64,000 bases of DNA from the IMG/VR virus record IMGVR_UViG_3300032030_000016. One strand, 5' to 3'. The notes under the pieces were generated by a model, which worked only from the letters and a program-made list of their open reading frames with translations, did not search any database and was not told the DNA's origin. The DNA comes from a virus. Lineage: Duplodnaviria > Caudoviricetes. Within the stretch, counting starts at the first letter, position 1. The number at the start of each line of letters is the position of its first letter. This document shows positions 4,083 through 46,607 of this stretch, in pieces. The translations under genes and the position numbers were made by a program.

Positions 4083-4132
4083 AAATCGCAAAAGTGCAGT
4101 ACTTTTGCACTTTTGCGATTTGTTTCTTTAAT
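4083..4132 (+). promoter_or_regulatory. 16-bp inverted repeat containing the AAAAGTGCAGTAC / TGCAC-N16-TnnAAT element (candidate late promoter and/or terminator)
   Basis: aaatcgcaaaagtgca 4083-4098 and tgcacttttgcgattt 4106-4121; the motif recurs at 29244 and 46556. Confidence 0.55.
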
Positions 4133-4181
4133 GAAAGGAACCCCGGGTGGGGCCTACGGAGGAAAGGATGTATAATATTCA

Positions 4182-5381
4182 ATGATTGACAAAACTAAAT
4201 ATTATAACTTATATAATACAGGAATAACAAAAGAAGAATTGATTTTTGAAATGGGAAAAGATAAAGAAACCTATGGATATGATTGGGAATCATGTTCTGA
4301 AATATTAAATCAAATTCTTGAAAAAAATGTAGACCCTGAAAGCTATAGAAAAAGATATGGGGAAATAAAAAGATTCTACGAAATTTTCCAAACAAAAATT
4401 CGTCAAGAAACAAATGAAGATATTCTTAAAGAAATAGAACAAAGACAGGAAGAATTAAAAAAAGAAAAATATAAATTTTTTGATGCAAGAAATGAATATA
4501 ATGCCCTTTTAAGAAAAAGAGCAAGACAGGAAGAAATTAATAATATTATTGTTGATTCAATAAATTCTCTTGATAAAAATAATTTTAAATTAAAAAAATC
4601 TATTCCTGCAACAAAAGAAGAAACGATGATTATCCCATTAAATGACTTACATTGTGGTTATAAAATTGAATCTATTTTGGGTAAATATGATGAAATAATT
4701 TTGAAAGAAAGAATTGAAAAATATTTATCTGAAATTATACAAATTCAAAATCAACATCATTGTGAAAGAGCTGTTGTGCTTGGTGGAGGAGATTTAATTA
4801 GTGGGAATATTCATGCTGAAATTAAAAGAAGTAATAATCTAAACGTTATTGAACAGCTTATTACTGTGTCAGAATATATATCAAATTTTTTGGCAGAATT
4901 GTCTACTATATTTAAAACAGTTTCATTTTTGTCTGTATCTGGTAATCACTCTCGTATTGAAAAATATAAAGATTCTATTAAAGAAGAACGTCTTGATGAT
5001 ATTGTTGAATGGTATTTAAAAGCAAATTTATCAAGATTTAACAATATTGAATTTGATAATTATATTAATGCTGATGCAACAATTAAAATTTTTGAAGTAT
5101 ATGAAAAATCATATATATTGATTCATGGTGATTATGACGATAATAATAATGGGTTAATTTTACAGAAACTTGCAAATAGACCTATTACTGCGATATTTTC
5201 TGGGCATTATCATCATAATGAAGTAGTTACGAAAAATGAAATCAAGTTTATTATGAGCGGTTCATTTATTGGAACTGATAACTTTACAATTCAAAAAAGA
5301 ATTGTTGCTCATCCTGAACAGTTGATAACAATACTTGACAAAAACGGTGTTTGCTGTTATTATGATATTGACTTATTATGA
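4182..5381 (+). CDS. Calcineurin-like metallophosphoesterase with N-terminal coiled coil
   Basis: DLH, GGD, GNH, HGD, GHYH motifs in canonical order. Confidence 0.85.
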   Translation: MIDKTKYYNLYNTGITKEELIFEMGKDKETYGYDWESCSEILNQILEKNVDPESYRKRYGEIKRFYEIFQTKIRQETNEDILKEIEQRQEELKKEKYKFFDARNEYNALLRKRARQEEINNIIVDSINSLDKNNFKLKKSIPATKEETMIIPLNDLHCGYKIESILGKYDEIILKERIEKYLSEIIQIQNQHHCERAVVLGGGDLISGNIHAEIKRSNNLNVIEQLITVSEYISNFLAELSTIFKTVSFLSVSGNHSRIEKYKDSIKEERLDDIVEWYLKANLSRFNNIEFDNYINADATIKIFEVYEKSYILIHGDYDDNNNGLILQKLANRPITAIFSGHYHHNEVVTKNEIKFIMSGSFIGTDNFTIQKRIVAHPEQLITILDKNGVCCYYDIDLL

Positions 5382-5710
5382 GTACAAAAAATGAAGAAAA
5401 ACAAATGCTCGTCAAACAAACAACAATAGATGTTGCAAAAAAAACATCTAAAAGATTCAATGGTATAAATACACCAGAAATTAAAATGATAATTGACGAG
5501 ACTTTTAATGTAATAAAAGAAATGATTCTTGATGGTGATTATGTTGTTATACAAGGATTAGGGGTTTTTTATACAGACTATCTTGATGAAGTTGATATAA
5601 AAGACCCAAGAAATAATGATATAATTCATTTTCAAAGAAGAAAAGTTCCACGCTTTTATTTTTCAAGAAATTTTAAAAAACAAATAAAAACATTTGATGA
5701 AAAGAAATAA
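5378..5710 (+). CDS. HU/IHF-family DNA-binding protein
   Basis: GDYVVIQGLGVF, DPRNND and RRKVPRFYFSRNFK match the HU arm motif. Confidence 0.8.
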   Translation: MSTKNEEKQMLVKQTTIDVAKKTSKRFNGINTPEIKMIIDETFNVIKEMILDGDYVVIQGLGVFYTDYLDEVDIKDPRNNDIIHFQRRKVPRFYFSRNFKKQIKTFDEKK

Positions 5711-6035
5711 AACTATGGGATTAATAGAAAAAAAGGAAAAAATAAAAAAAGAAAAATCTCAATCCATGAAATTGAATAAAAAGAAAATTATTCAATATAT
5801 AGCAGATAAGACATATGATAATGAAGACAAAATTGGTTACTATTTTGATTCCATTTTTTATGGCATATCTTTAGCTTTACAAGAAGGGTATGAGGTTCCT
5901 ATTGCTGATTTTGGTAAGTTTTACACAAAAAAAAGACATGTAAACAATCAAAGTATTGGGTTTGTTGGTGATATAAAGAAGATATTTTTTAAACCAACTA
6001 AAAAATTAAAAAAACTTATAAATAATAATGAATAA
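5694..6035 (+). CDS. Second HU/IHF-like DNA-binding protein
   Basis: EGYEVPIADFGKF and FKPTKKLK. Confidence 0.7.
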   Translation: MMKRNKTMGLIEKKEKIKKEKSQSMKLNKKKIIQYIADKTYDNEDKIGYYFDSIFYGISLALQEGYEVPIADFGKFYTKKRHVNNQSIGFVGDIKKIFFKPTKKLKKLINNNE

Positions 6036-6044
6036 AAAGAAAGA

Positions 6045-6079
6045 AAAAAAGGAGATGAGCATTAATCAACTCCTTTTTT
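6045..6079 (+). terminator. Intrinsic terminator-like hairpin
   Basis: aaaaaaggag...ctcctttttt. Confidence 0.55.
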
Positions 6080-6101
6080 ATTTAAAAGAAAGGAGTGTTA
6101 T

Positions 6102-7349
6102 ATGGCTAGACCAAAAGGTATGGTCATTACAAAAAAAGAAAAAAGTAGTGACAATGCTGAAATGATTCAATCTGAAATAGACGCTCTTTCTCAAAAAATA
6201 CAAGAAAAGGGTAATATAAAAGAAGTTGATGAAAAAATAATTGTTTTTGCTTGCCCTCGATGTGGTGAAACATCTAAAAATAGTTTCTACCCATCGTATA
6301 ATAAAACAAATATAATTTCAAAAAAAACTATTTATTGTAAAAAATGTATTGATGAAATATATAATGAATCACTACAATTATTTAAAAATGATAAAATAGC
6401 TATTACAAATGTTTGTCAAATATTAAATATTCCTTTTGATGAACGAATATATAATTCATGTAAAGAACTTGAAGACGAAGAAATTGACAAGTCATTAATA
6501 AAAACGTATTTTGAAAAAATTTCTGTATATAAATCTATTTATAATATTGGTGATTCATATGCAGATGGTGATACATTTTTTATAAAAGATAGTATTATTT
6601 CTAATGATGAATATAGTCAATATAAAGATAATATTGATAAACAACAAGAATACTTACAGCAAGTAAAAAAAACTGATGAAACAGTAAAAAGGAATAAAGA
6701 AGATGTTATAAGAATTGTTGGAGCTGACCCGTTTGAAAACTATCCTCCTGAAGATGCCACTGAACTATATGCTTCTTTATTAGATTTTTTAGATGAAGAT
6801 GTTGATCCACCAAGATTTTTATTAAACATATATATAGAAATTATAAAGAATTTCTATTTATTAGATAAAATTAATGAAGAAATGCTTATTCAAACATCTG
6901 ATTCCGAAAATTTATTTGCTAATGCAAAACAAATTAAAACATTAAATGATACAAAAACCACAATACAGAATACAATTAATAGGATTGCTTCTGATAATCA
7001 AATTAGTTTAAAAACCGCTAAAGATAAAGGCGATAAGAGTAAAAAGTTTACATATATTATAAGAAAATTAATGGAATATGATGATTTAGATGATGTAAAG
7101 TCAAATGTTTTTGATATAAAAACATCAAAAGCAATGGCTGAAGTTGAAAAACAAAGTTTTGGCAATATGATTTCACAACTTAATATTGAAGAGAACGATT
7201 ATATAAACGTTCTTGCCAATCAAAGAAATAGGATTGCTGAATTAGAAAGTGAACTATTGAAAACAAAAGAAAAAAATCGTGCCAAAACAAAACGAATAAA
7301 TAAACTTGAAGAACGCTTAAAAAGTTTGAGTGAGAAAAATGAAGAATAA
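6102..7349 (+). CDS. Zn-finger / coiled-coil protein, possible terminase small subunit (YonG-like position)
   Basis: CPRC and CKKC motifs; directly upstream of and overlapping the large terminase. Confidence 0.5.
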   Translation: MARPKGMVITKKEKSSDNAEMIQSEIDALSQKIQEKGNIKEVDEKIIVFACPRCGETSKNSFYPSYNKTNIISKKTIYCKKCIDEIYNESLQLFKNDKIAITNVCQILNIPFDERIYNSCKELEDEEIDKSLIKTYFEKISVYKSIYNIGDSYADGDTFFIKDSIISNDEYSQYKDNIDKQQEYLQQVKKTDETVKRNKEDVIRIVGADPFENYPPEDATELYASLLDFLDEDVDPPRFLLNIYIEIIKNFYLLDKINEEMLIQTSDSENLFANAKQIKTLNDTKTTIQNTINRIASDNQISLKTAKDKGDKSKKFTYIIRKLMEYDDLDDVKSNVFDIKTSKAMAEVEKQSFGNMISQLNIEENDYINVLANQRNRIAELESELLKTKEKNRAKTKRINKLEERLKSLSEKNEE

Positions 7350-9186
7350 TATTATTACGTCTAAATCATTTTATAGTTTATCACAAAGAAAACAAGACCA
7401 TTATGAACAATATATTAAACTTTTAAAATGGGGTAGAAAATATCCAATACGTTTTATTGAAACATTTTTCAATGTTGAATTATTAGACTACCAGAAATAT
7501 TTAATTTCAAAAACATGGGTTGCGGATAACTCATTATGGCTAATGTGTCGTAATGGCTCAAAAACAACATGTTTATCTTTTTATACTTTAGCAAGATGTA
7601 TTTTATTTCCAGATACAGAAGCATGGCTTATATCAAGAACTGGTTCGCAATCAAAAGAGTTATACGGCAAAATGGAAAAAATGGCAAAGAAGAGTCTTCC
7701 TTCATTTCCTAATTTAAGTGATTTTATTCTTGATGAGAGTGAAAAGATTCTCCATGATGACCAATCATATGAATGGACTTTCCCAAATAAAAGTTCCATA
7801 CATACGTTAAATGGTATTCCAGATAATGCTCGTGGACATCGTTCCACGTTGAACATTTATGATGAAAGCGCATTTATCACCGAAGAACTCTTTAAAGCAA
7901 CAGAACCTTTCCTACTTCAAGACTCAACATTTGTTACTGGTGTAAATCTTGAAGAAAGACCAGACCCACCGGGGAATCAAAGAATATTTGCCAGTTCTGC
8001 TGGTGATGTTGATAGTTATTTTTATTCTCAATATCGTGATTATTTTTTGAGAATGATGGGTGGAGATAGTAGATATTTTGTTGCTAATATTGATGCAGAT
8101 ATGCTGTTTGATGCCACAATGAATGGCAAAGTATATCCTGTTTCACTAATTAAAAAAGAAGATGTAAAAAGAGATTTACAAAAAGAACCAGCTAAAGCAA
8201 ATAGAGAATACTATAATAAATTCGATTCTGATGGTGGAATTAATCAAGTATTTAGACGGTCTTTATTGATAAAAAATTCAGAACAACGTGCACCTATTCT
8301 TTTTAATAAAGATGGAGATAAGCGTTTTATTCTCGCTTATGATCCTGCAAGAACATATGATAATAGTATTGTTGCTATTGCAGAAATAAAAGAACATCCT
8401 AATGGTGGTTATAAAGCAGAAATATGTAATTGCATATCACTTATTGACACCAGAGTAAAAAAGAAAAAGCCAGAAACCACACCAGATCAAGTACAAGCTA
8501 TAAAAAAAATGCTATTAGATTATAATGGTTGGAATATACCTGATTATGAAAATATAGATAGTTTGTGTGTTGATGCTGGCCCGGGAGGCGGGGGTATGAT
8601 AATAGCAGACCTTTTTATGGAGAATTGGATAGGAGAGGATGGAACAGAGCATAAAGGACTTATTGATCCTCAAATTAGTAGTGATTATGTCTCTCGATTC
8701 CCACAAGCAATCCATAAATTAAAACTTGTTGAACCTACTAAAATGAAACGGATTGCTTTTGATAACCTAAGAGAACTTCTTGCTCAAGGTAGAATTACTT
8801 TTACTGAAGAATTTAAAAAAGGAAATTCTACTATTACTATAGTTGAAAAAACACCAAAAGGGAAAGACAAAACAATAGAGAAGACAGTTTCAACTGAAGA
8901 GGCGTTGGCACTTATCAATATTGAACTAATGAAAGGTGAACTGGTTAATATTTATCGTAAAGATACAACTAATGGGTACACATATGATTTAAATCCTGAA
9001 CTAAAAGGAAGAAATTTCGATGATAGAGCATATGTTTGTGCTTTAATAGCATTAAGATTATCCGAGATAAATAGAGCAAAATTAAATAAAAATCCAAATA
9101 ACTTTAATTATGCAAATTTCATTTATGGAACTTCAAGTGGTTCAAAAAAAACAAATATTTTTGGAAGTTCATTTAATGGATTTTGA
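7339..9186 (+). CDS. terL: Terminase large subunit
   Basis: Walker A-like RNGSKT, ARGHR, Walker B IYDES, ASSA coupling motif, nuclease AYDPAR and DDRAY. Confidence 0.88.
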   Translation: MKNNIITSKSFYSLSQRKQDHYEQYIKLLKWGRKYPIRFIETFFNVELLDYQKYLISKTWVADNSLWLMCRNGSKTTCLSFYTLARCILFPDTEAWLISRTGSQSKELYGKMEKMAKKSLPSFPNLSDFILDESEKILHDDQSYEWTFPNKSSIHTLNGIPDNARGHRSTLNIYDESAFITEELFKATEPFLLQDSTFVTGVNLEERPDPPGNQRIFASSAGDVDSYFYSQYRDYFLRMMGGDSRYFVANIDADMLFDATMNGKVYPVSLIKKEDVKRDLQKEPAKANREYYNKFDSDGGINQVFRRSLLIKNSEQRAPILFNKDGDKRFILAYDPARTYDNSIVAIAEIKEHPNGGYKAEICNCISLIDTRVKKKKPETTPDQVQAIKKMLLDYNGWNIPDYENIDSLCVDAGPGGGGMIIADLFMENWIGEDGTEHKGLIDPQISSDYVSRFPQAIHKLKLVEPTKMKRIAFDNLRELLAQGRITFTEEFKKGNSTITIVEKTPKGKDKTIEKTVSTEEALALINIELMKGELVNIYRKDTTNGYTYDLNPELKGRNFDDRAYVCALIALRLSEINRAKLNKNPNNFNYANFIYGTSSGSKKTNIFGSSFNGF

Positions 9187-9219
9187 TAAAAAATTTTATA
9201 AAGAAAGGAGGGTAAAAAA

Positions 9220-11025
9220 TTGAAAAAATCTTCCGAAAAAAAAGAAAACACAAAAAATAAAGAAGTAATTTTAACAGAATCACAAAAACAATGGGCAAAC
9301 TTATTTTCTCAAATTAAACAATTTCATCCTAATGAAAATTTTCAGCAGAGATATTTAAAAACATATCCAATAAATATCAATGGTATGAGTGAAGCATTTA
9401 TTGGCAATGCTATTATGATGAATGAAAGACTGAAAAAGTTAAATACTTTTCCAGCTAAATACGATAAAGCAAAAATACAAGAAATGTTAGCTAATCCACA
9501 AAACTATGAAATGGATTTACGTGCTTTATCACGTTATGTTTATAATACACTTACACCAATATACAAACAAGTAAATTTATATGCGGATATACTGACATAT
9601 CGAACTTATGTAAATATATCTGAAATTAAAAGTCAATCAAAACTTATTAAAGAATATAATCGAATTTCTAATTTTTTGAGAAATTTTGACCCCGAAAGAA
9701 CATTTAGAAAAACAACATTATGTACTGTATTGGATGGTAAATCTTTTTGGTATTTAAGAACAGACAGAGGAGAAGATAATATTTGTTTGCAACAGTTGCC
9801 ATCTGATTATGTAAAAATAACAGGAATAACAAATAGAGGATTTCAAATTGCTTTTAATATGGTTTATTTCCTTGATCCTGCAAATAGTGTTCTTTTTTTC
9901 CCTCCTGAATTTAAGGAATATTTGAATAAGTTTTATGGATATTATAATAAAAATACCAAAGTGTTTGATTTAGATAAATTTGAAAAAGCTGGAATAGAAG
10001 ATGTCATTGCTTTTCAAGAACAATCTTCTTTATATTTTTGGCAATTTCTTGATATTAATAAATCATTTGTTTTTAGTATAGATGAAAGCACATTTGATAC
10101 AGCCCCAGCTTTAATGGCAAGTTTTGGTTCCGCTATTGAATTAGATAAATATAGAGCACTTGAACAAGAATTATTGAGTTTACCATTACAAGCATTACTT
10201 ACTTCTGAAATAGAAATAAGTGATAAAAATCTTTCTGGAATATATAGTGATGATACTGCCATTACACCTGATATGGTTGCATTATTTACTGAATTATTGC
10301 AACAAAAAATGCCACAAACTGTATCAGCGATTGCAGCACCTTTTAAAAATTTTAAACTTCATGAATTTGAACATGTTGATACAAAAGATTCCGTTTTAGG
10401 TGATGCTTTAAAAAACTATTATATTCAAAGTGGTGTTAATTCCCTAATCTCAACAAGTGAAAAGCCAACTCTTAGCCAAACAAGAGCTTCTGAAAAAATT
10501 GAGGCGCGATATATAGATAAATTATATAATCAATATCAATCTTGTTTGAACAGTATTATAAAAACATTTAAATTAAAAAATGAATTTTCTATTCATATCG
10601 AAGGTGATGTTTTTTCAGATGATTCCGAATATTCTAAAGTGAAAGAAGCAGTACAAAATGGTCAAACAGACCTTATTCCGAAACAACAAAGTTTCTTCTC
10701 TTCACATGTTGATGAAGCATTAGCAACAAGACAATTTATGGAAAAATGTGACTATCAAGGAAGTCTAGCACAAAAAAATATATCTATACAACAAAAACAA
10801 AGTACAGGAAATCCAGTAGGAAGACCATCTTCTAATGTTGATGAAGTTACCTCTGAAAATACAGCAATATCAATAGAACAAGGAACAAACACAGTTGAAG
10901 GCAGAGAAGTAACTAAAACATCTGAAACAACAACAAATACTGAAGAAACTTTTGCTAAATTATTTTCGCAAATGAGCGAAGACGAAATTGAGGACATAAA
11001 GGATTTTTTGAATGAAAATTATTAA
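9220..11025 (+). CDS. Portal protein
   Basis: TTG start after AAGGAGG; follows terL; LQQLPSDYVKI motif typical of SPbeta YonE-like portals; size. Confidence 0.75.
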   Translation: MKKSSEKKENTKNKEVILTESQKQWANLFSQIKQFHPNENFQQRYLKTYPININGMSEAFIGNAIMMNERLKKLNTFPAKYDKAKIQEMLANPQNYEMDLRALSRYVYNTLTPIYKQVNLYADILTYRTYVNISEIKSQSKLIKEYNRISNFLRNFDPERTFRKTTLCTVLDGKSFWYLRTDRGEDNICLQQLPSDYVKITGITNRGFQIAFNMVYFLDPANSVLFFPPEFKEYLNKFYGYYNKNTKVFDLDKFEKAGIEDVIAFQEQSSLYFWQFLDINKSFVFSIDESTFDTAPALMASFGSAIELDKYRALEQELLSLPLQALLTSEIEISDKNLSGIYSDDTAITPDMVALFTELLQQKMPQTVSAIAAPFKNFKLHEFEHVDTKDSVLGDALKNYYIQSGVNSLISTSEKPTLSQTRASEKIEARYIDKLYNQYQSCLNSIIKTFKLKNEFSIHIEGDVFSDDSEYSKVKEAVQNGQTDLIPKQQSFFSSHVDEALATRQFMEKCDYQGSLAQKNISIQQKQSTGNPVGRPSSNVDEVTSENTAISIEQGTNTVEGREVTKTSETTTNTEETFAKLFSQMSEDEIEDIKDFLNENY

Positions 11026-11173
11026 TTTAAAACAATTATTTTGTAAACATGATGATATAGCATGGAGTAAAACAAAAATAATGAGTTATCCTGAAATTTA
11101 TCGTGGTGTTTGTAAAAAATGCGGCAAAAAATGTAGTAAAATCGGTAAAGATGGTGAAATTGTATGGGAATAA
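11012..11173 (+). CDS. Small Cys/His-rich protein (53 aa), not in the ORF track
   Basis: MKIINLKQLFCKHDD...GVCKKCGKKC...WE*; fills the gap between portal and the next gene. Confidence 0.55.
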   Translation: MKIINLKQLFCKHDDIAWSKTKIMSYPEIYRGVCKKCGKKCSKIGKDGEIVWE

Positions 11174-11177
11174 AATA

Positions 11178-11711: not shown

Positions 11712-11743
11712 TTTCTAATTTAAAAAAGAAATGTGGATTAGAA

Positions 11744-12034
11744 ATGGCAAAAAATGTATGGTTTTTATCTAGGACAATTAATAGATATTTAGGTAATGAT
11801 TTATTTTTAATGAGAGCTAAAAAGCAAAGGAGGCAACAGCGTATGAAGGGAAGTTTTTATCACGATAAAATTGAAGGCCCGCAGAAAGTGAAAGCATATT
11901 TTATAGCTGCTGAAAAAGACAATATTTCAACAACTACAGTTTATGATGAAATTGGGCAAATGGTTCTTTATAACGATGAACTTTATATTTATACAAAAGA
12001 TCTTGAATACAAGAAGATTTCAGTTGCTTCTTAA
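11744..12034 (+). CDS. Hypothetical protein
   Basis: 96-aa ORF in operon context. Confidence 0.55.
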   Translation: MAKNVWFLSRTINRYLGNDLFLMRAKKQRRQQRMKGSFYHDKIEGPQKVKAYFIAAEKDNISTTTVYDEIGQMVLYNDELYIYTKDLEYKKISVAS

Positions 12035-12066
12035 TTGAAAAAATTATATTATGAAAAAAAGGATTT

Positions 12067-12726
12067 ATGAGTAATAAAAGCATTTTAATCGCAATACCGA
12101 ATATTGGAACTGTTTCAACAAATTTTATGTCACAAATGCTTGGAATGAATTATGGTAAATATACCATTGGTTATAGATTTATAAAATCAAATTTATTATA
12201 TTTATCGAGAGATAAACTTGCGTTATCTGCAATAAATAACAATTTTGATTATATATTATTTCTTGATACAGATCAACAAATACCAAATGATACCATATTA
12301 AGAATGGCAAAACATCTTGAGAATGGTGAAGATATTGTTACAGCGTTGATATTTACAAAAGAAAAACCATATAATCCATGTATTTATTCTGAATCAAAAA
12401 TTCTAGAAACAGGACAATTAAGTTTAAAATATTATCCCGTATCTGAAATACCTTTAGAACCTTTTTATGTTGAAAATTGTGGTTCTGGATGTGTTATGTT
12501 AAAAACTGAAGTATTTAAAAAAATTCCACAACCTTGGTTCCATCCATATATTTATTCAGGAGAAGATGTAACTTTTTTTCATGTTGCTACTCATACATAT
12601 GGATATAAAATTTTATGTGACCCAACAATAGATGTTGGTCATTGGGGAATTGAAAATATAAATAGAACAACGAAGTTGCTTTATGACGAAGAAGTTATTA
12701 GAATGAAAAGAGGTAATGTTTTATGA
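12067..12726 (+). CDS. GT-A fold (GT2-like) glycosyltransferase
   Basis: ILIAIP start, RDKLA, FLDTD (DxD), GSGCVML, GEDVTF, VGHWG. Confidence 0.85.
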   Translation: MSNKSILIAIPNIGTVSTNFMSQMLGMNYGKYTIGYRFIKSNLLYLSRDKLALSAINNNFDYILFLDTDQQIPNDTILRMAKHLENGEDIVTALIFTKEKPYNPCIYSESKILETGQLSLKYYPVSEIPLEPFYVENCGSGCVMLKTEVFKKIPQPWFHPYIYSGEDVTFFHVATHTYGYKILCDPTIDVGHWGIENINRTTKLLYDEEVIRMKRGNVL

Positions 12727-14184: not shown

Positions 14185-14198
14185 AGGAGGAAAAAAAC

Positions 14199-16133: not shown

Positions 16134-16158
16134 AAAATAAAAAGGAGTTAAATATATT

Positions 16159-16704: not shown

Positions 16705-16733
16705 TTATCTTGGAAAGGAGAAAAAAATAAACT

Positions 16734-17852: not shown

Positions 17853-17872
17853 TTTTTAATTTAATATATTAT

Positions 17873-17904: not shown

Positions 17905-17935
17905 TATATTATTATGAAAAAAAGGAAAAATAATA

Positions 17936-19336: not shown

Positions 19337-19343
19337 GGGATTT

Positions 19344-24803: not shown

Positions 24804-26840
24804 ATGGCAAATAGTATAAATTTTTCAGAATATGGATTTTTGGATGAAATTCTTGCCTTAACAGAAGATAACTGGCGCAAATACTTTAAACCCGTCATGT
24901 ATGATAGTGTACAAAGTGGTTTACAAGTTACTGCTGGGTCTGGCATGACATTTAACATCTCATCTGGCGAATGTCGATGTGGTGCTGTCATGGGTATTTT
25001 AAATGGAGCTGCTTCTTTGTCTATTGATGCTGGTAGTTCTAATGCAAGAATTGATTCAATTGTCGCACAATATGAATATGGTGATACATCCATATTATCA
25101 TTAACAGTCGTAAAAGGCACACCGAGTTCTTCTCCTGTTGCGCCTACATTAACAAAAACGTTTAATACATTGTGGCAAATGGAACTTGCTCAAATAGCTG
25201 TTCCTGCAAATGCAACATCTGCCTCACAGTGCACAATCACTGATAAAAGAGTTATTTACACATCTATTGATTCTGTTATCAATCCTATTTTAGAAGACAT
25301 AGATACAATTAATGACGAAATAGTTTCTATTACAACGAATATAGATACAATCAATGATGAAATAATCTCTATTACAGCAAATATAGATACAATTAATAAT
25401 GAAATAGTTTCTATTACAACAAATATTGATACAATTAATGATGAAATAATTTCTATTACAACAAATGTTGATGCAATTAATGATGAAATCACTACAATTA
25501 ATGATAAAATAGATACAGTAATTACAGGAGAGTTTTCAACATCAACCGCATACAACATAGGTGATTATGTTATTTACAATAATACATTATATCGTTTTAC
25601 ATTCACACATCCAGCAGGCGAATGGAATAATAATCATGTTGTTGCAGTAACTATTGGCAGTGAACTTAAAAATATCAATAGAGAATTAAATTTAACATAT
25701 CAACAAATATCTGAAATTGTTAAATCTGGTCTTGCTGACCAGTATTTTAATATTGGAGATCAAATTATTGTCAAGTGGAATAATGGAAGCACAGATTATG
25801 ACCTTCCTTTTGATATTGTGGCTATGAGAGATGTTGTAAATGCCGATGGAAGTACTGTTCCCGGAATGATATTACAAGCACATTGGGTATTACCCGGAGT
25901 GCAGTTTGATGCATCTGAAGCTTCTTATGTTGCCAGTGCTATTATTCCAGCAGGAACACACTATATTGAAATTGGTCAAAATTGGGGTAATAACTGTAAA
26001 GCTAATTATAAATATGAATTTACAACAACACAAGATGTTCCAGTAAATGGTCAAATCGTAATGACAAGAAGTGGAAGTAATCAATACACATGGGGAGCAC
26101 CAGACCAAAATCCGTCAACTTGGGTTGTTTATACATTTGCTTCCAATGCCTCGACAACACCAATAGAAGGGCCTTTGTCTTTAACAGAATATACAAATGA
26201 ACAAACTCCTTCAAGTACGAGTCTTGGTACTTTGCTTCAAAATACAAAATATAGTTTAAATGGAATTAACAATTTACAAAGAGCTGCATATGGTTATAAT
26301 AGATGGTCTCAAAGTGCAATGAGACAATGGTTGAATAGTAATGCTGTTGCTGGTTCATGGTGGGAACCCAAAAATCCCTTTGATAGACAACCACAACAAC
26401 TTTCATCTATGCGCGGATTTATGGCAGGGTTCGACAGTGATTTCCTTAGTGTAATTAAACCAGTTACTGTTACTACTGCATTAAATACGATTAGTGATAC
26501 TGAAATTGGTACATCAGAAACTACAATAGATACATTCTTCTGCGCTTCTCTTGAAGAGGAATATTGTGTACCTCAATTAGCTGGAGTAGAAGGTGCATAT
26601 TGGCCTTATTGGAAAGAAAGACTTGAACTTGATTCTCCACAGGCTTCTGGTGCAGATAATGCTAATGTTAATCATATAAGATATTTAATCAGCAATCATT
26701 CTTCTGCTCAGCACGTTCGTCTGCGTTCAGCCTATCGTGGCACCGCTTATAGCACGTGGTTTGTGTCCACGACTGGCTACGTCATCAGCATCAACGCCAC
26801 GACCTCGTTTGGTTCGTGCCCGGCTTGCGTCATCTGCTAA
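24804..26840 (+). CDS. DGR target protein: tail-fibre/receptor-binding protein with coiled-coil stalk and C-terminal DUF6273/CLec-like domain
   Basis: N-terminal WQMELAQIAV tail-anchor motif, heptad repeats, NRWSQSAMRQWLNS and VRLRSA...CPACVI C-terminus containing the VR. Confidence 0.85.
   Translation: MANSINFSEYGFLDEILALTEDNWRKYFKPVMYDSVQSGLQVTAGSGMTFNISSGECRCGAVMGILNGAASLSIDAGSSNARIDSIVAQYEYGDTSILSLTVVKGTPSSSPVAPTLTKTFNTLWQMELAQIAVPANATSASQCTITDKRVIYTSIDSVINPILEDIDTINDEIVSITTNIDTINDEIISITANIDTINNEIVSITTNIDTINDEIISITTNVDAINDEITTINDKIDTVITGEFSTSTAYNIGDYVIYNNTLYRFTFTHPAGEWNNNHVVAVTIGSELKNINRELNLTYQQISEIVKSGLADQYFNIGDQIIVKWNNGSTDYDLPFDIVAMRDVVNADGSTVPGMILQAHWVLPGVQFDASEASYVASAIIPAGTHYIEIGQNWGNNCKANYKYEFTTTQDVPVNGQIVMTRSGSNQYTWGAPDQNPSTWVVYTFASNASTTPIEGPLSLTEYTNEQTPSSTSLGTLLQNTKYSLNGINNLQRAAYGYNRWSQSAMRQWLNSNAVAGSWWEPKNPFDRQPQQLSSMRGFMAGFDSDFLSVIKPVTVTTALNTISDTEIGTSETTIDTFFCASLEEEYCVPQLAGVEGAYWPYWKERLELDSPQASGADNANVNHIRYLISNHSSAQHVRLRSAYRGTAYSTWFVSTTGYVISINATTSFGSCPACVIC
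25299..25517 (+). repeat. About 5 tandem 42-bp repeats encoding IDTINDEIVSITTN (double heptad)
   Basis: Units start at 25299, 25341, 25383, 25425 and 25467. Confidence 0.9.
26707..26827 (+). repeat. DGR variable repeat (VR)
   Basis: Ungapped 121-bp match to 27335-27455; 17 mismatches, all opposite TR adenines. Confidence 0.97.
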
Positions 26841-26847: not shown

Positions 26848-26873
26848 ATCTGTCGCCTTCAATGGCGACAGAT
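26848..26873 (+). promoter_or_regulatory. DGR homing hairpin/cruciform downstream of the VR
   Basis: atctgtcgcc-ttcaat-ggcgacagat, perfect 10-bp stem 7 nt after the target stop. Confidence 0.85.
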
Positions 26874-27334: not shown

Positions 27335-27455
27335 CTCAGAACGTTCGTCTGCGTTCAGCCAATCGTGGCAACGCTAATAACACGTGGAATGTGAACACGA
27401 CTGGCAACGTCAACAACAACAACGCCACGAACTCGAATGGTTCGTGCCCGGATTG
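27335..27455 (+). ncRNA. DGR template repeat (TR)
   Basis: Non-coding copy of the VR with 14 AAY codons in the VR frame, between avd and RT. Confidence 0.95.
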
Positions 27456-27614: not shown

Positions 27615-28646
27615 ATGGAAAATATAGAAGAAAAAGTAATCGGATTTGATGCGTTATATCAATCAATGTGGAAATGTTTAAAAGGTGTTTTATGGAAAGA
27701 TTCTGTTGCAAGTTTCTATCTTCGTGCTGGCGAAAATGTTTCTAAACTTGCAACAGAATTAGAAAATGGAACATATAAAGCAAGACCACCAATGCATTTT
27801 ACAATAACGTCACCAAAACCACGTGAAATCGCATCTGTAGCATTTCGTGATAGAGTTTATCAAAGAAGTTTAAATGATAATATTGTATATCCAACAATGA
27901 CAAAGAGCTTTATTTATGATAACTTTGCGTGCCAAAAAGGAAAAGGAACAGACGAAGCAAGAAATAGATTGAAAAAATTTATTAGAAAATGCTATAGGAT
28001 GTATGGTACAAATTTATTTGTTTGTCAATTTGACATTCATGGTTACTATCCTAATATGGATCATAAATTAACTGAAGAAATGTTTCAAAAGAAACTTGAC
28101 CCTTGGAGTTATAAACAGGTACAAAAAATTCTTAATGAACAATATGAAGGAGAAAAAGGATATAACCCCGGAAGTCAACTTGTGCAAATAGCTGGAATAT
28201 CCATGCTTGATGGGATGGATCATTTTATCAAAGAAAAATTACATGCAAAATTTTATATTCGATATATGGATGATTTTATTATAATACATAATAATATAGA
28301 AACAATGCAAAAATGGAAAAATGAAATTGAACATTATTTAAATAATTTGAAATTTGAAATAAATCCAAAAAAAACAAAAATTTATTCAATTAGTAAAAAG
28401 ATAAAATTTCTTGGTTTCCAATTTTCAGTGACCGAAACAGGCAAAGTATTGATGCAAATACTTCCTGAAAATGTTAAAAGAGAACGAAAAAAATTATATA
28501 GGCTTGTAAAAAAATGTAAAAAGGGAGGAATCCCAAAATCATCTGTAGATAATTCTTATGAAGCATGGAAAAACCATGCGTCAAAGGGAAATAATTACAA
28601 ACTCCTTTGCCGAATGGATAAATATTATAGATCATTATGGGAATAA
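27615..28646 (+). CDS. DGR reverse transcriptase
   Basis: KPREI, FRDRVYQ, NFACQKGKGT, DIHGYY, PGSQLVQ, YIRYMDDF, FLGF; 343 aa with no maturase or endonuclease domain. Confidence 0.95.
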   Translation: MENIEEKVIGFDALYQSMWKCLKGVLWKDSVASFYLRAGENVSKLATELENGTYKARPPMHFTITSPKPREIASVAFRDRVYQRSLNDNIVYPTMTKSFIYDNFACQKGKGTDEARNRLKKFIRKCYRMYGTNLFVCQFDIHGYYPNMDHKLTEEMFQKKLDPWSYKQVQKILNEQYEGEKGYNPGSQLVQIAGISMLDGMDHFIKEKLHAKFYIRYMDDFIIIHNNIETMQKWKNEIEHYLNNLKFEINPKKTKIYSISKKIKFLGFQFSVTETGKVLMQILPENVKRERKKLYRLVKKCKKGGIPKSSVDNSYEAWKNHASKGNNYKLLCRMDKYYRSLWE

Positions 28647-28826: not shown

Positions 28827-28943
28827 ATGGCAAAAATTTACTACAACAGAATTAAAGCAGGTATCATGACCCTTGAAGATGTTCCTGCGCGTTGGCGCGA
28901 AGCTGTGCGAAAGATGTTAGAAGATGAAACAGGAAATGAATAA
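28827..28943 (+). CDS. CD1375/XkdX-like small protein (38 aa), not in the ORF track
   Basis: MAKIYYNRIKAGIMTLEDVPARWREAVRKML; GAGGG RBS. Confidence 0.7.
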   Translation: MAKIYYNRIKAGIMTLEDVPARWREAVRKMLEDETGNE

Positions 28944-29101
28944 TGAAAGATAGTGTTGTTCTTTCTACAAACGAAGTAAGAGAGATACTTTCTGATTATT
29001 TTAATATTCCAATTGAAGATGTTTTTAGAGCAAAATATTCTTTTGTTATTGTTGTTGATGAAGAATTGAAAAAAATGATAAAAGAACATCGGGAATTATA
29101 A
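28943..29101 (+). CDS. Hypothetical protein (52 aa), not in the ORF track
   Basis: TAATG coupling; MKDSVVLSTNEVREILSDYFNIP. Confidence 0.5.
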   Translation: MKDSVVLSTNEVREILSDYFNIPIEDVFRAKYSFVIVVDEELKKMIKEHREL

Positions 29102-29140: not shown

Positions 29141-29177
29141 AAAATAGCTCTATTAAAAAGCAATAGAGCTATTTTTT
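29141..29177 (+). terminator. Intrinsic terminator
   Basis: aaaatagctctatt / aatagagctatttt stem plus T tract. Confidence 0.75.
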
Positions 29178-29196: not shown

Positions 29197-29283
29197 ATAA
29201 AATACACATTTTATTGAAAAAAATGATAAAAAAAATGCTTGAAGTACTGCACTTTTTTTATGTCATATTCTAATAAAAATGAT
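29197..29283 (+). promoter_or_regulatory. Copy A of an 87-bp repeated regulatory element
   Basis: ATAAAA-N6-TTTTAT, 30 bp, then a 39-mer 36/39 identical to 46569-46607. Confidence 0.7.
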
Positions 29284-40182: not shown

Positions 40183-40208
40183 ATAAAAAAGAAAGGGGGA
40201 TAAGATAG

Positions 40209-41315: not shown

Positions 41316-41318
41316 AAT

Positions 41319-42227
41319 ATGTTTAATATATTAGGATTTAATTTTTTATTTGATGCATATGCTCTTGATTCTCGTCCTACAAATGTTGAACCATTGACAA
41401 CTTCCGTTGTTTCAAATGGTATTTTTAATGAAGTACAAATATCTTCTCAAGTAGATGAAACAACTATTGATACTACAATTCCTACCGCTTTTGGCGCATA
41501 TGACATTTTATTATGTAACTTTAATGGAAACATTGAAGGTGGTAGTTTGGACTATTATGATTTTGATTTAATTAAAATAAAAAGAAGAATATATGGAACA
41601 TTCAATTGGATAACATTATTTGAAATTTCTGTTTCTGAAATCTCTGACATGTATTTTACAAAATATGATTGGTTTGCAAAAACAAATACAACATATGAAT
41701 ATGCTTTTGTTCCTGTAACTGGTGGAGTTGAAGGTAACTACTCAATTGTTTCTGTAGATAGTGAATTTTATAAAATATATTTATGTGATTCCACAACAAT
41801 CTATGCTCTTGATGCAGGAATTGTTTTTGGCAATATTTCAAAATCAAATAAAACAAATATTTTTGAACCTCTAATGGGTAAATATCCTATTGTTGTTTCT
41901 AATGCTGAACTCGATTATAAGAGTGGAACATTAAGCGGAACAGTTATCACACCTTCTGAAGATACGACAAAAGTATGGAATTTACAAGAGAACATTAAAT
42001 TACAAAACAATATTTTAAATTTTTTAGTAAACAAAAAAGCAAAAATTTATAAAGACTGGATGGGAAATTCATATTTAATTCTCATTGTAGAAGACGTGAA
42101 TCTTGTACCAAACAACAATATTGGTGGCAGATTAGCCGATATTGCTTTTAGTTTTGTTGAAATAGGTGATTCTGAAAATCAAGATGACCTTTATGAAAAT
42201 GGTCTTATTGATGTTCAAATAACATAA
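41319..42227 (+). CDS. Distal tail (Dit-like) protein
   Basis: IKRR, YEYAFVP, KYPIV, KAKIYKD, FVEIGD motifs. Confidence 0.6.
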   Translation: MFNILGFNFLFDAYALDSRPTNVEPLTTSVVSNGIFNEVQISSQVDETTIDTTIPTAFGAYDILLCNFNGNIEGGSLDYYDFDLIKIKRRIYGTFNWITLFEISVSEISDMYFTKYDWFAKTNTTYEYAFVPVTGGVEGNYSIVSVDSEFYKIYLCDSTTIYALDAGIVFGNISKSNKTNIFEPLMGKYPIVVSNAELDYKSGTLSGTVITPSEDTTKVWNLQENIKLQNNILNFLVNKKAKIYKDWMGNSYLILIVEDVNLVPNNNIGGRLADIAFSFVEIGDSENQDDLYENGLIDVQIT

Positions 42228-42237
42228 AGGATATAAG

Positions 42238-43746
42238 ATGGCAATAATTTCACAAGACCAATACAATGTTGTCAAACAAAGATATAGAAAAATATTAATA
42301 AAAATTAATTTACTGAATTTTAATTTTCAAGTTGTTGATTCTATTGAGGGGAATTTAACAACTGGTAGTATTACGATAAATGCCAATAGTGATATTAGAC
42401 GTTCGTGTAATATCACTATGGTTGTAAAAAATCATACATTTCAAATTAGTGCTGGTGGTCAAATTTGGCTTGATAAGTATATCCAGATTTATTATGGAAT
42501 AGTAAATAATGTAAATAATGAAGTCGTTTGGACAAATATGGGAATATTTTTAATTAATAACCCTAATCATGTTTATGATTCTGTCAACAACACAATAACA
42601 TTTCAAGGCGTTGACTTGATGGCTAAACTTACTGGCATTAGAAATGGATATTTTGAATGGTTAAATGGTGTTATTCCTCAACAAACAGATGAAGAAAATG
42701 GAACATTGAGAGATATTTTTATTGATTTGTTAGAACAAGCAGGTTTTACAAAATATAATATTGAAAATTTGGTTTATATAAATGGAGAAGTTATAAAACT
42801 TCCATATGATGTGGAAATTTCAGCGACAAGTACATTATATGACGTTTTTAATGAAATTAGAAATAATGTCCTACCAAATTATGAAATGTTTTTTGATATA
42901 GATGGTGTTTTCAATTTAAAGAAAATTTATAACTCGGCATCAGACCCAATAATTATTGATAATGATGTTTTTAATAAAACTGTCATGAATATTACGAATG
43001 ACATTAATTTTGAAAATGTTAAAAATGCTATTGAAATCTGGGGACAAACTTTAGAGCCTGTATATGGTAATCCAGTGTGCACTATTGACAGCGATTCTCA
43101 GCTTGGAGATGTTTGGTTTTGTGAAATAACAGAAATAAAAGCATTTGAAACTATACCTGAAAACAGTTATATAGGTTTTGGTATTCGTTCAAGTGTTTAT
43201 ACACAAACATCTTATCTGCATATTGATGGTTTTCAACCCTATCAAATAGTTGATGAAAATAATGATCCCGTTTATTTTGATCAACCAGAAACTGGAAGTA
43301 TTGATTATTATATAGTTGTTTTTGAATCAGAAGAAAATGGGGGGCATTTTAAATTAATTGGTAATCAACAAGTCTATTGTTACATAGAAGATGATATTCC
43401 AGAATCACCATTTTATGTAAATGGTAGCATTGGCAAAATTTTATTGCCCTTATCTGGTGGAGAATATGAAATTATACAAACAAAACAACAAGCATATGAA
43501 AGAGCTTTATATGAACTCTATAATTATGCACGAATGAATGATAGTATAAGATTAACTAGTGTAATAATACCTTGGGCTGATGTTAATCAAAAAATAGAAT
43601 ACATTAATGAAGATGCTGAAATATCTGGAATATTTATTATAAAAAACATATCAATGAATCTGGATGTTGGTGGTGTAATGACTTTAGAATGTATGAGATG
43701 GTATGATTATGAACCAGACAAATATCCATGGGAACACGATTCTTAA
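42238..43746 (+). CDS. Tail hub / baseplate (Tal-like) protein
   Basis: SDIRRSCNITM, MGIFLI, YEMFFDIDG, IPWADVNQKI. Confidence 0.65.
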   Translation: MAIISQDQYNVVKQRYRKILIKINLLNFNFQVVDSIEGNLTTGSITINANSDIRRSCNITMVVKNHTFQISAGGQIWLDKYIQIYYGIVNNVNNEVVWTNMGIFLINNPNHVYDSVNNTITFQGVDLMAKLTGIRNGYFEWLNGVIPQQTDEENGTLRDIFIDLLEQAGFTKYNIENLVYINGEVIKLPYDVEISATSTLYDVFNEIRNNVLPNYEMFFDIDGVFNLKKIYNSASDPIIIDNDVFNKTVMNITNDINFENVKNAIEIWGQTLEPVYGNPVCTIDSDSQLGDVWFCEITEIKAFETIPENSYIGFGIRSSVYTQTSYLHIDGFQPYQIVDENNDPVYFDQPETGSIDYYIVVFESEENGGHFKLIGNQQVYCYIEDDIPESPFYVNGSIGKILLPLSGGEYEIIQTKQQAYERALYELYNYARMNDSIRLTSVIIPWADVNQKIEYINEDAEISGIFIIKNISMNLDVGGVMTLECMRWYDYEPDKYPWEHDS

Positions 43747-43763
43747 AAAAAGAAAGGAAAAAA

Positions 43764-44504
43764 ATGAGTGCAACATATCCACAATATCCGCATAGCAATT
43801 TTCCAGATGATTTAGATTCTTGGGAAGATTTTCTTGATGTAGAAGCATCTGATGCAACTCTACTTACTCAATATCAGCAATATATTCTCGCTGGCGATAT
43901 GGAAAATGCTTATAATATCTATCAACAAATTAGTAATGCTGATAGAAAATTTATTGGAGCATTGGTAATGAATCAATTTGCTGATGCGATCATGTCCCTA
44001 GAACAGTTTTATAGCAATAGCGGATTTATAAATTATGTAACAGAAAAACAAGCCGAATGGCAAGTAATTATAGACAAATTTTCATATATCGGTATTTATA
44101 ATGATACAACCCAATATTATAAAAACAATATTGTTTTATATAATGCAAATGGTCAAAATTATTTATATATTAATACCTACAATGGAACAACGCCTGTTGG
44201 AACAATTCCAACTCAACCTAGTTATTGGAGAATATTGACGATTCAAGGAAATCAAGGAGAAGCAGGAAGTTCAACCACTTTTTACTTCTCTTGGGATTCT
44301 GCGACAAACTATAAAACAAATAATGTTGTTGCAGTTGGATCGTCTTTATATGTAGCTTTACAGGATAATGTTAATATATCGCCTACAGCTAATTCTACTT
44401 ATTGGCAGAGAATTTTTACAACACCACAAAAACATTATCCAATACAAGAAACACAACCACAAGATGCTTTGGTTGGAGATTTATGGTTTAGGATTGTGAC
44501 ATGA
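43764..44504 (+). CDS. Tail tip protein with carbohydrate-binding-like repeats
   Basis: YxxxxxYYKNNIVxY and WDSATNYKTNNVV modules; start 43764 after AAAGGA. Confidence 0.6.
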   Translation: MSATYPQYPHSNFPDDLDSWEDFLDVEASDATLLTQYQQYILAGDMENAYNIYQQISNADRKFIGALVMNQFADAIMSLEQFYSNSGFINYVTEKQAEWQVIIDKFSYIGIYNDTTQYYKNNIVLYNANGQNYLYINTYNGTTPVGTIPTQPSYWRILTIQGNQGEAGSSTTFYFSWDSATNYKTNNVVAVGSSLYVALQDNVNISPTANSTYWQRIFTTPQKHYPIQETQPQDALVGDLWFRIVT

Positions 44505-45226
44505 CAGATTTAAGAAGATTACAAGATGTTCAGCTCGGAGACGAGAATTTAATAGAGAATTATAGGAACTATTTTAATGATAGACAAATTGATAATGCTC
44601 ATAATTTAATAAACACAAATAAATATAAATCTTATGTTCTTCAAGCTGAATGGATGAATAATATAAAAACAAAGATAGAACAAGTTGAAGAATATAGTGA
44701 TATTGAAATAACACAAAATTTAAATAATAAAAATACAGAGTTTCAAACAAATATTGATAGATTATTATATATTCAAGAATATAATAATGTAACACAATAT
44801 TATGAAAACAATCTTGTTTCATATAATAATAACATTTATTTTTGTATAAATGATTCTTTAGGAAATCTACCAACTAATACAAACTATTGGTTAAAAATAG
44901 GATTAATAGGCGAAAAGGGTCAATATGGATTAGGAATCAATTATAGAGGATTCTGGAACTCAACTACGTCATACAATAAATATGATTTAGTTTCTTATGA
45001 AAATAATTTATATGTTGCAACCAAAAACAATGTTGGAACAACACCATCTTTTGGTAAATATCTTAATGATTCTTTATATTTAAACAGTAATTTATATTTA
45101 GGACTTGAGGATAAAACAGCAACATGGTTCTTATTGACAAGAATAGAAATTCAACCAATCTATGTTTTCCCCGCCGACTATAAACAACTTCAATTAGATT
45201 CTATCTTTTTTGCAGAGGTTCAATGA
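44501..45226 (+). CDS. Tail tip protein with carbohydrate-binding-like repeats
   Basis: YYENNLVSY, WNSTTSYNKYDLVSY modules. Confidence 0.6.
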   Translation: MTDLRRLQDVQLGDENLIENYRNYFNDRQIDNAHNLINTNKYKSYVLQAEWMNNIKTKIEQVEEYSDIEITQNLNNKNTEFQTNIDRLLYIQEYNNVTQYYENNLVSYNNNIYFCINDSLGNLPTNTNYWLKIGLIGEKGQYGLGINYRGFWNSTTSYNKYDLVSYENNLYVATKNNVGTTPSFGKYLNDSLYLNSNLYLGLEDKTATWFLLTRIEIQPIYVFPADYKQLQLDSIFFAEVQ

Positions 45227-45621
45227 CAAACTATAATATAGAAATAAGACAATTTAATGGTACCGATTATGATGTTCTTTATCCAGTAACAACAATCGGA
45301 AATATAATTGATTTAGAAAATCAATTAAATAATAGACCTATACTGACAACAACACAAGTTACTTTAACCGCTAGCGGATGGTCTGGTAATGGTTCAACAA
45401 CACCATATACACAAGATATCACAATATCTGGTGTTACAACAAGTAGTAATATAATTATCAATATTGTCCCATTATCTACAAGTTACACAGGTATTGCAAA
45501 TGAAGTAAACAATTTTCAATACATAAATTTCACAACTCCACTAAATGGCAAAGTGAGATTTACTTGTGTTGGTAGTAAGCCAACAATTGCATTAACTGTA
45601 AAAGTTTTATGTTTTCAATAA
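45223..45621 (+). CDS. Small tail fibre-like protein
   Basis: NGTDYDVLYPVT; VTLTASGWSG..PYTQDITISGVT. Confidence 0.55.
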   Translation: MTNYNIEIRQFNGTDYDVLYPVTTIGNIIDLENQLNNRPILTTTQVTLTASGWSGNGSTTPYTQDITISGVTTSSNIIINIVPLSTSYTGIANEVNNFQYINFTTPLNGKVRFTCVGSKPTIALTVKVLCFQ

Positions 45622-45638
45622 CATAAAGGAGGAATAAT

Positions 45639-46529
45639 ATGAAGTTAGCATTAATACGACCAGTAAAAAAAAGTTATGTTGTTACTTTTTCGTATAGTGA
45701 GCATGTTGCTTATGCTATTCAAAATAATCTTGGTAACACTTATCGTGGTGGTATAGATTATGTTGGATATAATGCTGATTCTAATGGAAACATACCTCTG
45801 TATTGTGCAGATAAAGGCATTGTAAACAAAATTGTTTATGATGAAAAAGGATATGGGAATTGTATAAAAGTTAAACATCAATGGGGTTATTCTATATATG
45901 CACATATGAAATATCCCCCAACTTTAGCTATTGGAACGACAGTGGATGAATTTACAATTCTTGGTTATCAGGGTCATAGTGGAAATTGTAGAGATGCAAA
46001 TGGGAATAATACAGAAGCCGCCTCACATCTCCATTTTGAAATCAGGGATTTGAATAATAATACATTTGATCCAACTCCTTACATCATAGATAGAGAAGAT
46101 TATATATTATCTCAACAAAATTTAAATTTTAATGACAACTCTATTCATGTTGGTTCTGTTGTTTGCATAAAGGATGGTGCAAAATCATACACTGGTCAAT
46201 CTTTATGGAATGGTGTATATGGTCAACCATATACCGTTGACGAGATTTATAATAACAGAGTATTATTAGATAGAGCTGGAATTTGTACACCTGTAAATAT
46301 TGATGATATTTATCTTTACGAAGCACCTAATGAACAGCATAATAATAATGGTAATAACAATCAAGTAAATAATAATGATGAATCAAATTATTACACTGTT
46401 CAAGCTGGAGATAGTTTATGGTCTATTTCGCAAAAATTTAATACAACAATTGACAATATTATGAAACTGAATCCAGAAATTACAAATGCTAATCTTATTT
46501 ATGTTGGACAAACTCTAAAAATAAAATGA
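45639..46529 (+). CDS. Endolysin: M23 peptidase plus LysM
   Basis: GIDY, GYGN, YAHM, HLHFE; C-terminal YTVQAGDSLWSISQKF...LIYVGQTLKI. Confidence 0.9.
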   Translation: MKLALIRPVKKSYVVTFSYSEHVAYAIQNNLGNTYRGGIDYVGYNADSNGNIPLYCADKGIVNKIVYDEKGYGNCIKVKHQWGYSIYAHMKYPPTLAIGTTVDEFTILGYQGHSGNCRDANGNNTEAASHLHFEIRDLNNNTFDPTPYIIDREDYILSQQNLNFNDNSIHVGSVVCIKDGAKSYTGQSLWNGVYGQPYTVDEIYNNRVLLDRAGICTPVNIDDIYLYEAPNEQHNNNGNNNQVNNNDESNYYTVQAGDSLWSISQKFNTTIDNIMKLNPEITNANLIYVGQTLKIK

Positions 46530-46607
46530 TACTTTTATTTAAAATATTGCATTTTAAAAGTGCAGTACTACTGCACTTTTTTTATGTAATATTACAATAA
46601 AAATGAT
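46521..46607 (+). promoter_or_regulatory. Copy B of the 87-bp repeated regulatory element, with 12-bp inverted repeat
   Basis: ATAAAA-N6-TTTTAT 46521-46538; aaaagtgcagta-c-tactgcactttt 46556-46580. Confidence 0.7.

Follow-up and report, generated by a model that had tools for sequence, protein, structure and literature searches.

Which promoter the single-chain, two-barrel RNA polymerases (RNAPs) of the YonO type read is a question that dates from 2017. The late cluster of SPbeta is transcribed by YonO as a single operon, and its start site, which lies upstream of yonK, has been mapped, the promoter sequence being undefined (Forrest et al. 2017, PMC5467207). We analysed a stretch of 64,000 nucleotides (nt; the window) of an SPbeta-like phage, taken from the minus strand of a complete virus record of 144,664 bp and 28% G+C (IMG/VR IMGVR_UViG_3300032030_000016; Caudoviricetes). 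The window carries a YonO-like RNAP gene and, at three places, a repeat that a first-pass annotation had put forward as the late promoter or operator of this polymerase. The sites are named S1 (4083-4133), S2 (29223-29283) and S3 (46543-46609), in window positions. The reading that we lean towards, at somewhat better than an even chance, is that they form a small family of intrinsic-terminator modules at the boundaries of transcription units.

Occurrence of the repeat

A total of three exact copies of the 13-mer AAAAGTGCAGTAC were found, at 4090 and 46556 on the plus strand and at 29244 on the minus strand, against 0.09 expected. All three sites are intergenic, as the first-pass annotation had stated. 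A fourth copy with one mismatch, at 46568 on the minus strand, is the opposite arm of S3, and at least four copies were reached in none of 100 shuffles. The 13-mer itself is the 5' arm of a palindromic hairpin together with the beginning of the loop. The pattern TGCACTTTT-N12-TnnAAT occurs at 4106, 29248 and 46572, and the shared element noticed earlier, (T/C)TGCAC-N16-TnnAAT, held up in a search of the whole genome with TGCAC-N16-TnnAAT, in which S1, S2 and S3 were the only intergenic matches and one further match lay within a gene. The exact pattern ACTGCACTTTTTTTATGT had no match in IMG/VR, and nothing was found in the window with Rfam at gathering thresholds.

The likeness between the sites is uneven. 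S2 and S3 have about 87-90 nt in common, beyond the motif alone, and S3 is a chimera, with the left arm of S1 and a right part of 41 nt that differs from S2 by three changes.

The hairpin behind the RNAP operon

The features at and before S1 are as follows.

531..559, + strand: perfect sigmaA promoter (TTGACA-17-TGnTATAAT) that drives the RNAP operon
593..3325, + strand: YonO-like two-barrel RNAP (PF05183, E 3e-16; relatives of 911 amino acids, aa)
3322..4077, + strand: open reading frame (ORF) 251, with a probable winged-helix domain and a C-terminal CxxC..CxxC Zn ribbon; overlaps the RNAP stop codon
4083..4121, + strand: S1 hairpin of 17 bp with a T-rich tail, predicted terminator of the RNAP operon
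4109..4133, + strand: invariant block ACTTTTGCGATTTGTTTCTTTAATG (3' arm, T tract, TTTAAT and G), the same in four lineages except for TTTAAT/TATAAT; candidate late promoter on position alone
4139..4154, + strand: small second hairpin, within the yonJ-like gene's 5' leader, where relatives have a hairpin of unrelated sequence

The RNAP probably starts at ATG 593 rather than at ATG 548, because the latter falls within the sigmaA promoter. S1 begins 5 nt 3' of the ORF251 stop codon and lies at the end of the unit driven from promoter 531. It has a perfect stem with 6 GC, a folding energy of -24.5 kcal/mol and a z of -7.5 against shuffles, and it is followed by TTTGTTTCTTT.

S1 was recovered from four lineages, namely this phage, scaffold_25 (L001), L002-L005 and L049, and the hairpin is strong in all of them (-17 to -25 kcal/mol, z -5 to -7.8). 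The stem bottom and 3' flank, ACTTTTGCGATTTGTTTCT(T/A)TAATG, are invariant in the four, with L049 reading TATAAT, and the N16 spacing is intact in each. The stem top varies between GTGCA/TGCAC, GTATA/TGTAC, GTTCA/TGCAC and GTGCA/TATAC. Conservation ends directly after AATG, and beyond it each lineage has a small hairpin of its own.

Most of the distant relatives, with 35-48% RNAP identity, have a strong hairpin and T-run of unrelated sequence behind the ORF251 homologue, most clearly L017, L018, L019, L022, L023 and L025. As these unrelated elements occupy the same spot, a terminator after the RNAP operon appears from the compared sequences to be a family trait; the particular sequence of S1 does not. 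In L023 (13870-13950) and L025 (12280-12420), tRNA-like sequences, judged by eye from the fold output, occupy the gap between the RNAP-operon terminator and the first late gene.

Hairpin turnover at the lysin/ORF184 junction

Two overlapping features make up S3.

46540..46608, + strand: S3-carrying stretch of 69 nt, absent from the related lineages L027/L029 and L030/L031
46543..46593, + strand: S3 two-tier palindrome, inner hairpin 46556-46580 and T7, -23.3 kcal/mol

S3 begins about 14 nt past the stop codon of the M23/LysM gene. Its 11-bp hairpin (4 GC) with T7 lies inside a second stem of 10 bp, and the whole has a z of -7.4. In L027 and L030, strong hairpins unrelated to S3 occur a few nt further on (-23.5 and -21.6 kcal/mol), and these two co-vary with each other; the homologous stretch of this phage folds like its shuffles (z -0.6). 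The comparison suggests that an older junction hairpin has decayed in this phage and that the 69-nt stretch supplies a hairpin instead. What is conserved at this junction is some hairpin, not the sequence of S3. S1 and S3 are the top plus-strand terminator predictions of their regions. Both have a stem followed by a U-tract and both lie at the 3' end of a unit.

S2 before the recombinase gene

The third site is the weakest of the family and follows a terminator-like hairpin of its own.

29141..29175, + strand: separate 14-bp terminator hairpin and T-run, 3' of the retroelement cassette and two small plus-strand ORFs
29223..29266, + strand: S2 hairpin, two-tier and weakened, -9.4 kcal/mol
29243..29283, + strand: S2 right half, AGTACTGCAC-N16-TCTAATAAAAATGAT, conserved with S3

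In this phage S2 sits 70 nt beyond the separate terminator; in all lineages it lies 70-120 nt 5' of the recombinase gene. The arrangement TG(C/T)AC-N16-TC(T/C)AAT-AAAAAT is kept by this phage, L065 and scaffold_25. In L010 and L007, 12-13 extra nt disrupt the N16 spacing, with the hairpin kept or improved and a T8 run kept. Some lineages have tandem tyrosine recombinase genes of 324-326 aa and 339 aa (L010:3368-5512, L012, L013, L065:12814-14493), with the S2 hairpin between the two; this phage and scaffold_25 have one such gene.

Pairing in RNA or sites on DNA

The changes in the stems bear on whether the palindromes act as RNA or as DNA. A G-C pair of this phage is replaced by A-T in scaffold_25 and L007 and by G·T in L049 and L010, and a total of 13 G·U pairs, one C·A, one T·C and one A·A were counted in ten hairpins. 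The plus-strand RNA also folds better than the minus strand, with a mean difference of 2.5 kcal/mol and a maximum of 10.8 kcal/mol. Because the stem changes are compensatory or G·T and the plus strand folds better, these sequence comparisons favour, within a small sample, stems that form in the sense RNA rather than a symmetric DNA site for a protein. Structure is thus retained over sequence in the way seen in intrinsic terminators, through compensatory and G·U changes within the stems and, where relatives have the equivalent junctions, through hairpins of unrelated sequence.

Probable terminator modules at unit boundaries

What the sequences show is the hairpins, where they lie, how far they are conserved and their turnover; that they end transcription, and which polymerase they stop, we infer from this. 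S1-S3 would be related copies of one module, a palindromic hairpin and T-run, acting as factor-independent terminators or as RNA 3'-end hairpins of plus-strand transcripts at the edges of units. S1 would halt host-RNAP transcription that enters from promoter 531 and crosses the RNAP and ORF251 genes, and such a stop would shield the late genes from early transcription. S2, weakened by now, may be a further hairpin downstream of the terminator at 29141, on the boundary of the retroelement cassette with the recombinase, holin and tape-measure genes, and S3 a later copy that replaced an older unrelated hairpin at the junction of the M23 lysin gene and ORF184. The common 13-mer would stem from shared descent or module copying and would not be a promoter word.

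Rho-independent terminators, including bidirectional ones with an A-tract, stem and T-tract, are likewise stem-loops followed by a T-run a few nt past a stop codon, at a unit end that is defined by a promoter, and the S sites resemble them in keeping structure by compensatory and G·U changes and in being replaceable in sequence. The sites are unlike typical members of that class in sharing one stem word at three places, in having A/T-rich, two-tiered stems, and in S2 being too weak for efficient termination.

Several observations weigh against the terminator reading. Terminators of independent origin would have no need of a common 13-mer, so that this reading has to assume copying. S2 is a poor terminator both here and in L065 (G/C top of 3 bp, -9 to -11 kcal/mol). 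Its right half with N16-TnnAAT is conserved in three of the five lineages and has a sharp 3' edge at AATAAAAAT, and the 14 nt past the S1 stem (TTGTTTCTTTAATG) are invariant, which exceeds what a U-tract needs. Finally, the late promoter must lie near S1, and there a dual role is inseparable from a role as terminator only. Under the terminator reading, the place to expect the true late promoter is the stretch of 60 nt from S1 to the yonJ-like gene, perhaps with an overlap onto the 3' arm of S1. Of the three sites, S1, just behind the RNAP genes, is on its sequence context the only reasonable candidate to hold the late promoter as well.

A possible dual role as terminator and promoter

The most serious rival, which we nevertheless consider rather unlikely, is that the modules do double duty. 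The hairpin would close the upstream unit, and its 3' arm with the next 25 nt or so would be the promoter of the YonO-like RNAP, of the form TRYAC-N16-TnnAAT-purine and perhaps read with ORF251, so that three late units would start from S1, S2 and S3. Slightly more doubtful again is its boldest form, in which an S-box ACTTTT-N12-TnTAAT-purine would be the first defined promoter of a YonO-type single-chain two-barrel RNAP, with ORF251 helping to read it.

Much of the genomic context is in keeping with this rival and with the first-pass annotation. Strong intergenic sigmaA-type promoters on the plus strand were found at 531, 47291, 48148, 50503, 54839, 58941, 62947 and further on, and outside 4.2-47.2 kb nearly every intergenic gap has one. 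None was found between genes on the plus strand within 4.2-47.2 kb, a late block of 43 kb, so that the earlier observation of consensus sigmaA promoters only outside this block agrees with our scan. A whole-genome domain search found no sigma-70 r2/r4 domain. By analogy with SPbeta, the late block is probably read by the phage RNAP.

S1 lies in the place syntenic to the YonO start of SPbeta (168 coordinate 2225998, bracketed by the primer pair to about 200 nt on the phage record), 3' of a YonO-like gene and a terminator and 5' of the yonJ, HU, yonG, terminase and portal genes, a likeness that is positional only. The late block here is likewise without sigmaA promoters, and S1 is the only one of the three sites in the corresponding position. 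A separate terminator ahead of S2 would make a restart there sensible. Further points in favour are the N16 spacing (kept at S1 in four of four lineages, at S2 in three of five, and at S3), the sharp edges of conservation behind TTTAAT-G at S1 and behind the S2 block, the TATAAT of L049, and the constant company of the RNAP gene and an ORF251-type gene with a probable DNA-binding fold.

The repeat itself fits a promoter word poorly. The pentamer at S1 is TGCAC, TGTAC or TATAC in phages with an RNAP identity of 85-93% to this one, a variability at odds with nearly identical RNAP and ORF251. Within lineages, the S1 and S2 pentamers are concordant in two cases (this phage and scaffold_25) and discordant in two (L002/L010 and L049/L065, pairs of contigs presumed, not proven, to be one phage each); the two pentamers do not co-vary, which lends no support to a co-evolving reader. 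The S2 spacing is broken in L010 and L007, and S3 is absent from two lineages that retain the downstream gene. Outside the stem, the agreement of S1 with S2 and S3 falls to about 50%, in DNA with 72% AT, and what they share there is the low-information TnnAAT.

The sites also do not qualify as sigmaA promoters. Their -10-like hexamers (TTTAAT, TCTAAT and TACAAT) match the consensus at 5/6 positions, the -35 positions (TTGCAC or CTGCAC) at 2-3/6, and a TG extension is lacking, whereas the real sigmaA promoters of the phage match at 11-12/12. SPbeta has one late operon with one start, against three starts proposed here; the two RNAPs are about 25% identical, and SPbeta is without an ORF251-type gene after yonO. 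The proposal of a late promoter of the phage RNAP thus stands as regards its context, that is, the YonO-like RNAP, its translationally coupled Zn-ribbon partner, the sigmaA-free block and the position of S1. The motif as its word is less well supported, being largely the stem of terminator-type hairpins, with a TGCAC that varies, an N16 that is broken at S2 in two of five lineages and a third site that is missing from two related lineages; a promoter overlapping the hairpins would be most plausible at S1.

Distant relatives are also hard to reconcile with a repeated promoter. No repeated module was found in five of them when 10-mers common to their gaps were compared. Their late operons are rich in diverse hairpin and T-run elements, so close to the start codon that follows (10-25 nt) that promoters have no space in between. 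In a cross-family motif search of ten post-RNAP gaps, the top word TTTTGCA was found in four gaps against 0.27 expected, which is non-significant once corrected, and TTTGYAY showed no clear enrichment between genes.

The eye-catching repeat is accordingly poor evidence for a YonO-type promoter, as it is mostly terminator stem. The search for such a promoter can be narrowed to the 25-nt invariant block at 4109-4133, beside a conserved candidate cofactor gene, and the locus offers a clean case of hairpin turnover and, on the terminator reading, of module copying within one phage genome.

A further comparison is with the promoter-early stem-loop cassettes (PeSLs) of T4-type phages (Arbiol et al. 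2010, PMC2839356). PeSLs are likewise small repeated cassettes of a terminator stem-loop and a promoter-like element, placed at unit boundaries and differing by indels among close relatives. PeSLs, however, carry strong sigma70 promoters and are found by the dozen in hyperplastic early regions, and their activity both as promoters and as terminators has been tested; the S sites number three, lie in the late region, have no sigma70-type -35, place the hairpin before the promoter-like box, and are predicted elements. The S sites resemble PeSLs in architecture only and do not belong to them.

The RNAP and its candidate partner

Relatives of the RNAP in metagenomes fall at 85-93% identity in some cases and at 35-48% in many; the best matches of the protein among isolates have 25-33% identity, and a megablast of 20 kb against a phage collection gave no match. 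An ORF251-type gene follows the RNAP gene and overlaps its stop codon across RNAP identities of 35-93% (L001, L002, L014-L025 and L049). In the distant relatives the homologues are Zn-ribbon ORFs of 240-320 aa, and CxxC...CxxC is invariant among homologues. A search for ORF251 relatives in IMG/VR found none.

The AlphaFold model of ORF251 has a mean pLDDT of 84.5, and Foldseek returned no match to it at E <= 0.001. With VIA-align, residues of about 90-216 matched winged-helix-type domains only, including those of ORC/Cdc6, MCM8, TFIIE alpha and beta, and RPC62, at Z 5-7.3, values that denote a common arrangement and not a family assignment. Winged helix and Zn ribbon in one protein recall the archaeal and eukaryotic initiation factors of the TFE/TFIIE type. 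Judged from the model, ORF251 is a plausible DNA-binding partner and candidate cofactor of the RNAP, nothing more.

L049 is the closest relative, with 93% RNAP identity, and its RNAP gene is interrupted: about 375 nt separate an ORF of 640 aa from one of 235 aa. This intervening stretch matches RF00028, the complete model of group I introns, at positions 11911-12176 of the contig (35.9 bits, E 2e-7), under the gathering score. The same lineage has a TnpB/IS605 OrfB gene of 367 aa (L049:19410-20513, equal to L058:10001-11104), preceded by an extra ORF of 131 aa; this insertion separates the terminase region from the portal gene. Its terminase is called as 412 aa, against 618 aa in this phage.

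Protein sites on DNA and selfish repeats as further rivals

That the palindromes are protein sites at the DNA level is improbable in our view. They would be tyrosine recombinase cores of the lox/dif kind, serving dimer resolution or module exchange, or dimeric winged-helix operators, for example of ORF251. Every site does have inverted arms of 9-12 bp around a centre of 6-7 bp, close to the 9-13-bp arms and 6-8-bp centres of lox and dif cores, and the recombinase gene next to S2 in all lineages (with S2 between two such genes in L010 and L065) recalls P1 loxP beside cre. S2 and S3, moreover, flank the recombinase-tail-lysis module as direct repeats.

The centres, however, are not identical as in lox/dif cores (GTACTT, GAAGTAC and GTACTAC), which makes recombination between sites impossible, and essential head or tail genes would be deleted if direct repeats stood on both sides of them. 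T-runs and adjacency to stop codons also set the sites apart from such cores, S1 being distant from the recombinase and adjoining both. The stem mismatches are G·T rather than A·C, and with the better folding of plus-strand RNA they point to pairing on one strand; the unrelated hairpins at the S1 position in distant relatives likewise speak against a DNA site.

A selfish or neutral palindrome copied into AT-rich gaps, with no regulatory role, is very improbable: the 69-nt presence/absence difference of S3 between close lineages, its chimeric look and a 10-nt direct repeat AAAAATGATA on both sides of the S2 core would suit it, but there are just three copies per 144.6 kb, in a single orientation and all at operon boundaries, S1 and S2 are fixed in position in all lineages examined with structure-preserving changes, and IMG/VR yielded no copies of the exact pattern.

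Layout of the late block and other features

Two features mark the far end of the sigmaA-free block.

47214..47243, + strand: hairpin and T-run closing the sigmaA-free block behind ORF184
47291..47318, + strand: first perfect sigmaA promoter beyond the late block

S1 is followed, in order, by the yonJ-like exonuclease gene, two HU genes, a yonG-like gene and the large terminase and portal genes; beyond the portal lie head genes, tail tube genes and a diversity-generating retroelement, all between S1 and S2. S2 is followed by the genes for a tyrosine recombinase, a holin, a 2,682-aa tape measure protein, tail proteins and the M23/LysM lysin. The sites thus precede the packaging/head operon and the recombinase-holin-tape-measure operon as first described; ORF184 (46661-47215), which follows S3 and had been called displaced, has the same position in relatives.

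A mini-ORF of five codons (ATG TAT AAT ATT CAA TGA, 4168-4185) lies between the Shine-Dalgarno sequence and the start of the yonJ-like gene, which it overlaps as ATGA. Relatives are without it and have a gap of 13-15 nt between Shine-Dalgarno sequence and ATG instead.

The retroelement has a pair of 121-nt repeats with 86% identity (26707-26827 and 27335-27455) and a reverse transcriptase gene at 27615-28646. The first repeat lies at the 3' end of a 678-aa head-decoration or virion-like gene (24804-26840) and the second lies upstream of the reverse transcriptase gene; a G/C-rich hairpin of 10 bp (26848-26873) stands right behind the first copy. Target genes differ among relatives (615-1177 aa, DUF6273), and the L049 lineage has no target at the same place. 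Two small ORFs follow the reverse transcriptase gene.

28828-28947, + strand: ORF of 39 aa, which we take to be XkdX-like in appearance
28943-29101, + strand: ORF of 52 aa

As these two occupy the same stretch, a minus-strand ORF at 28841-29089 was rejected as spurious. Given both, the window from the RNAP gene on (593 to the end) would be coded on a single strand.

An identical A/T-rich hairpin of 44 nt (20 bp) occurs near both ends of the record, at 63-106 and 144596-144639 of the reverse-complemented genome, with flanks that are the same over the extent displayed. This repetition fits either a terminal repeat or a circular assembly overlap, although the record has been assigned to the linear class.

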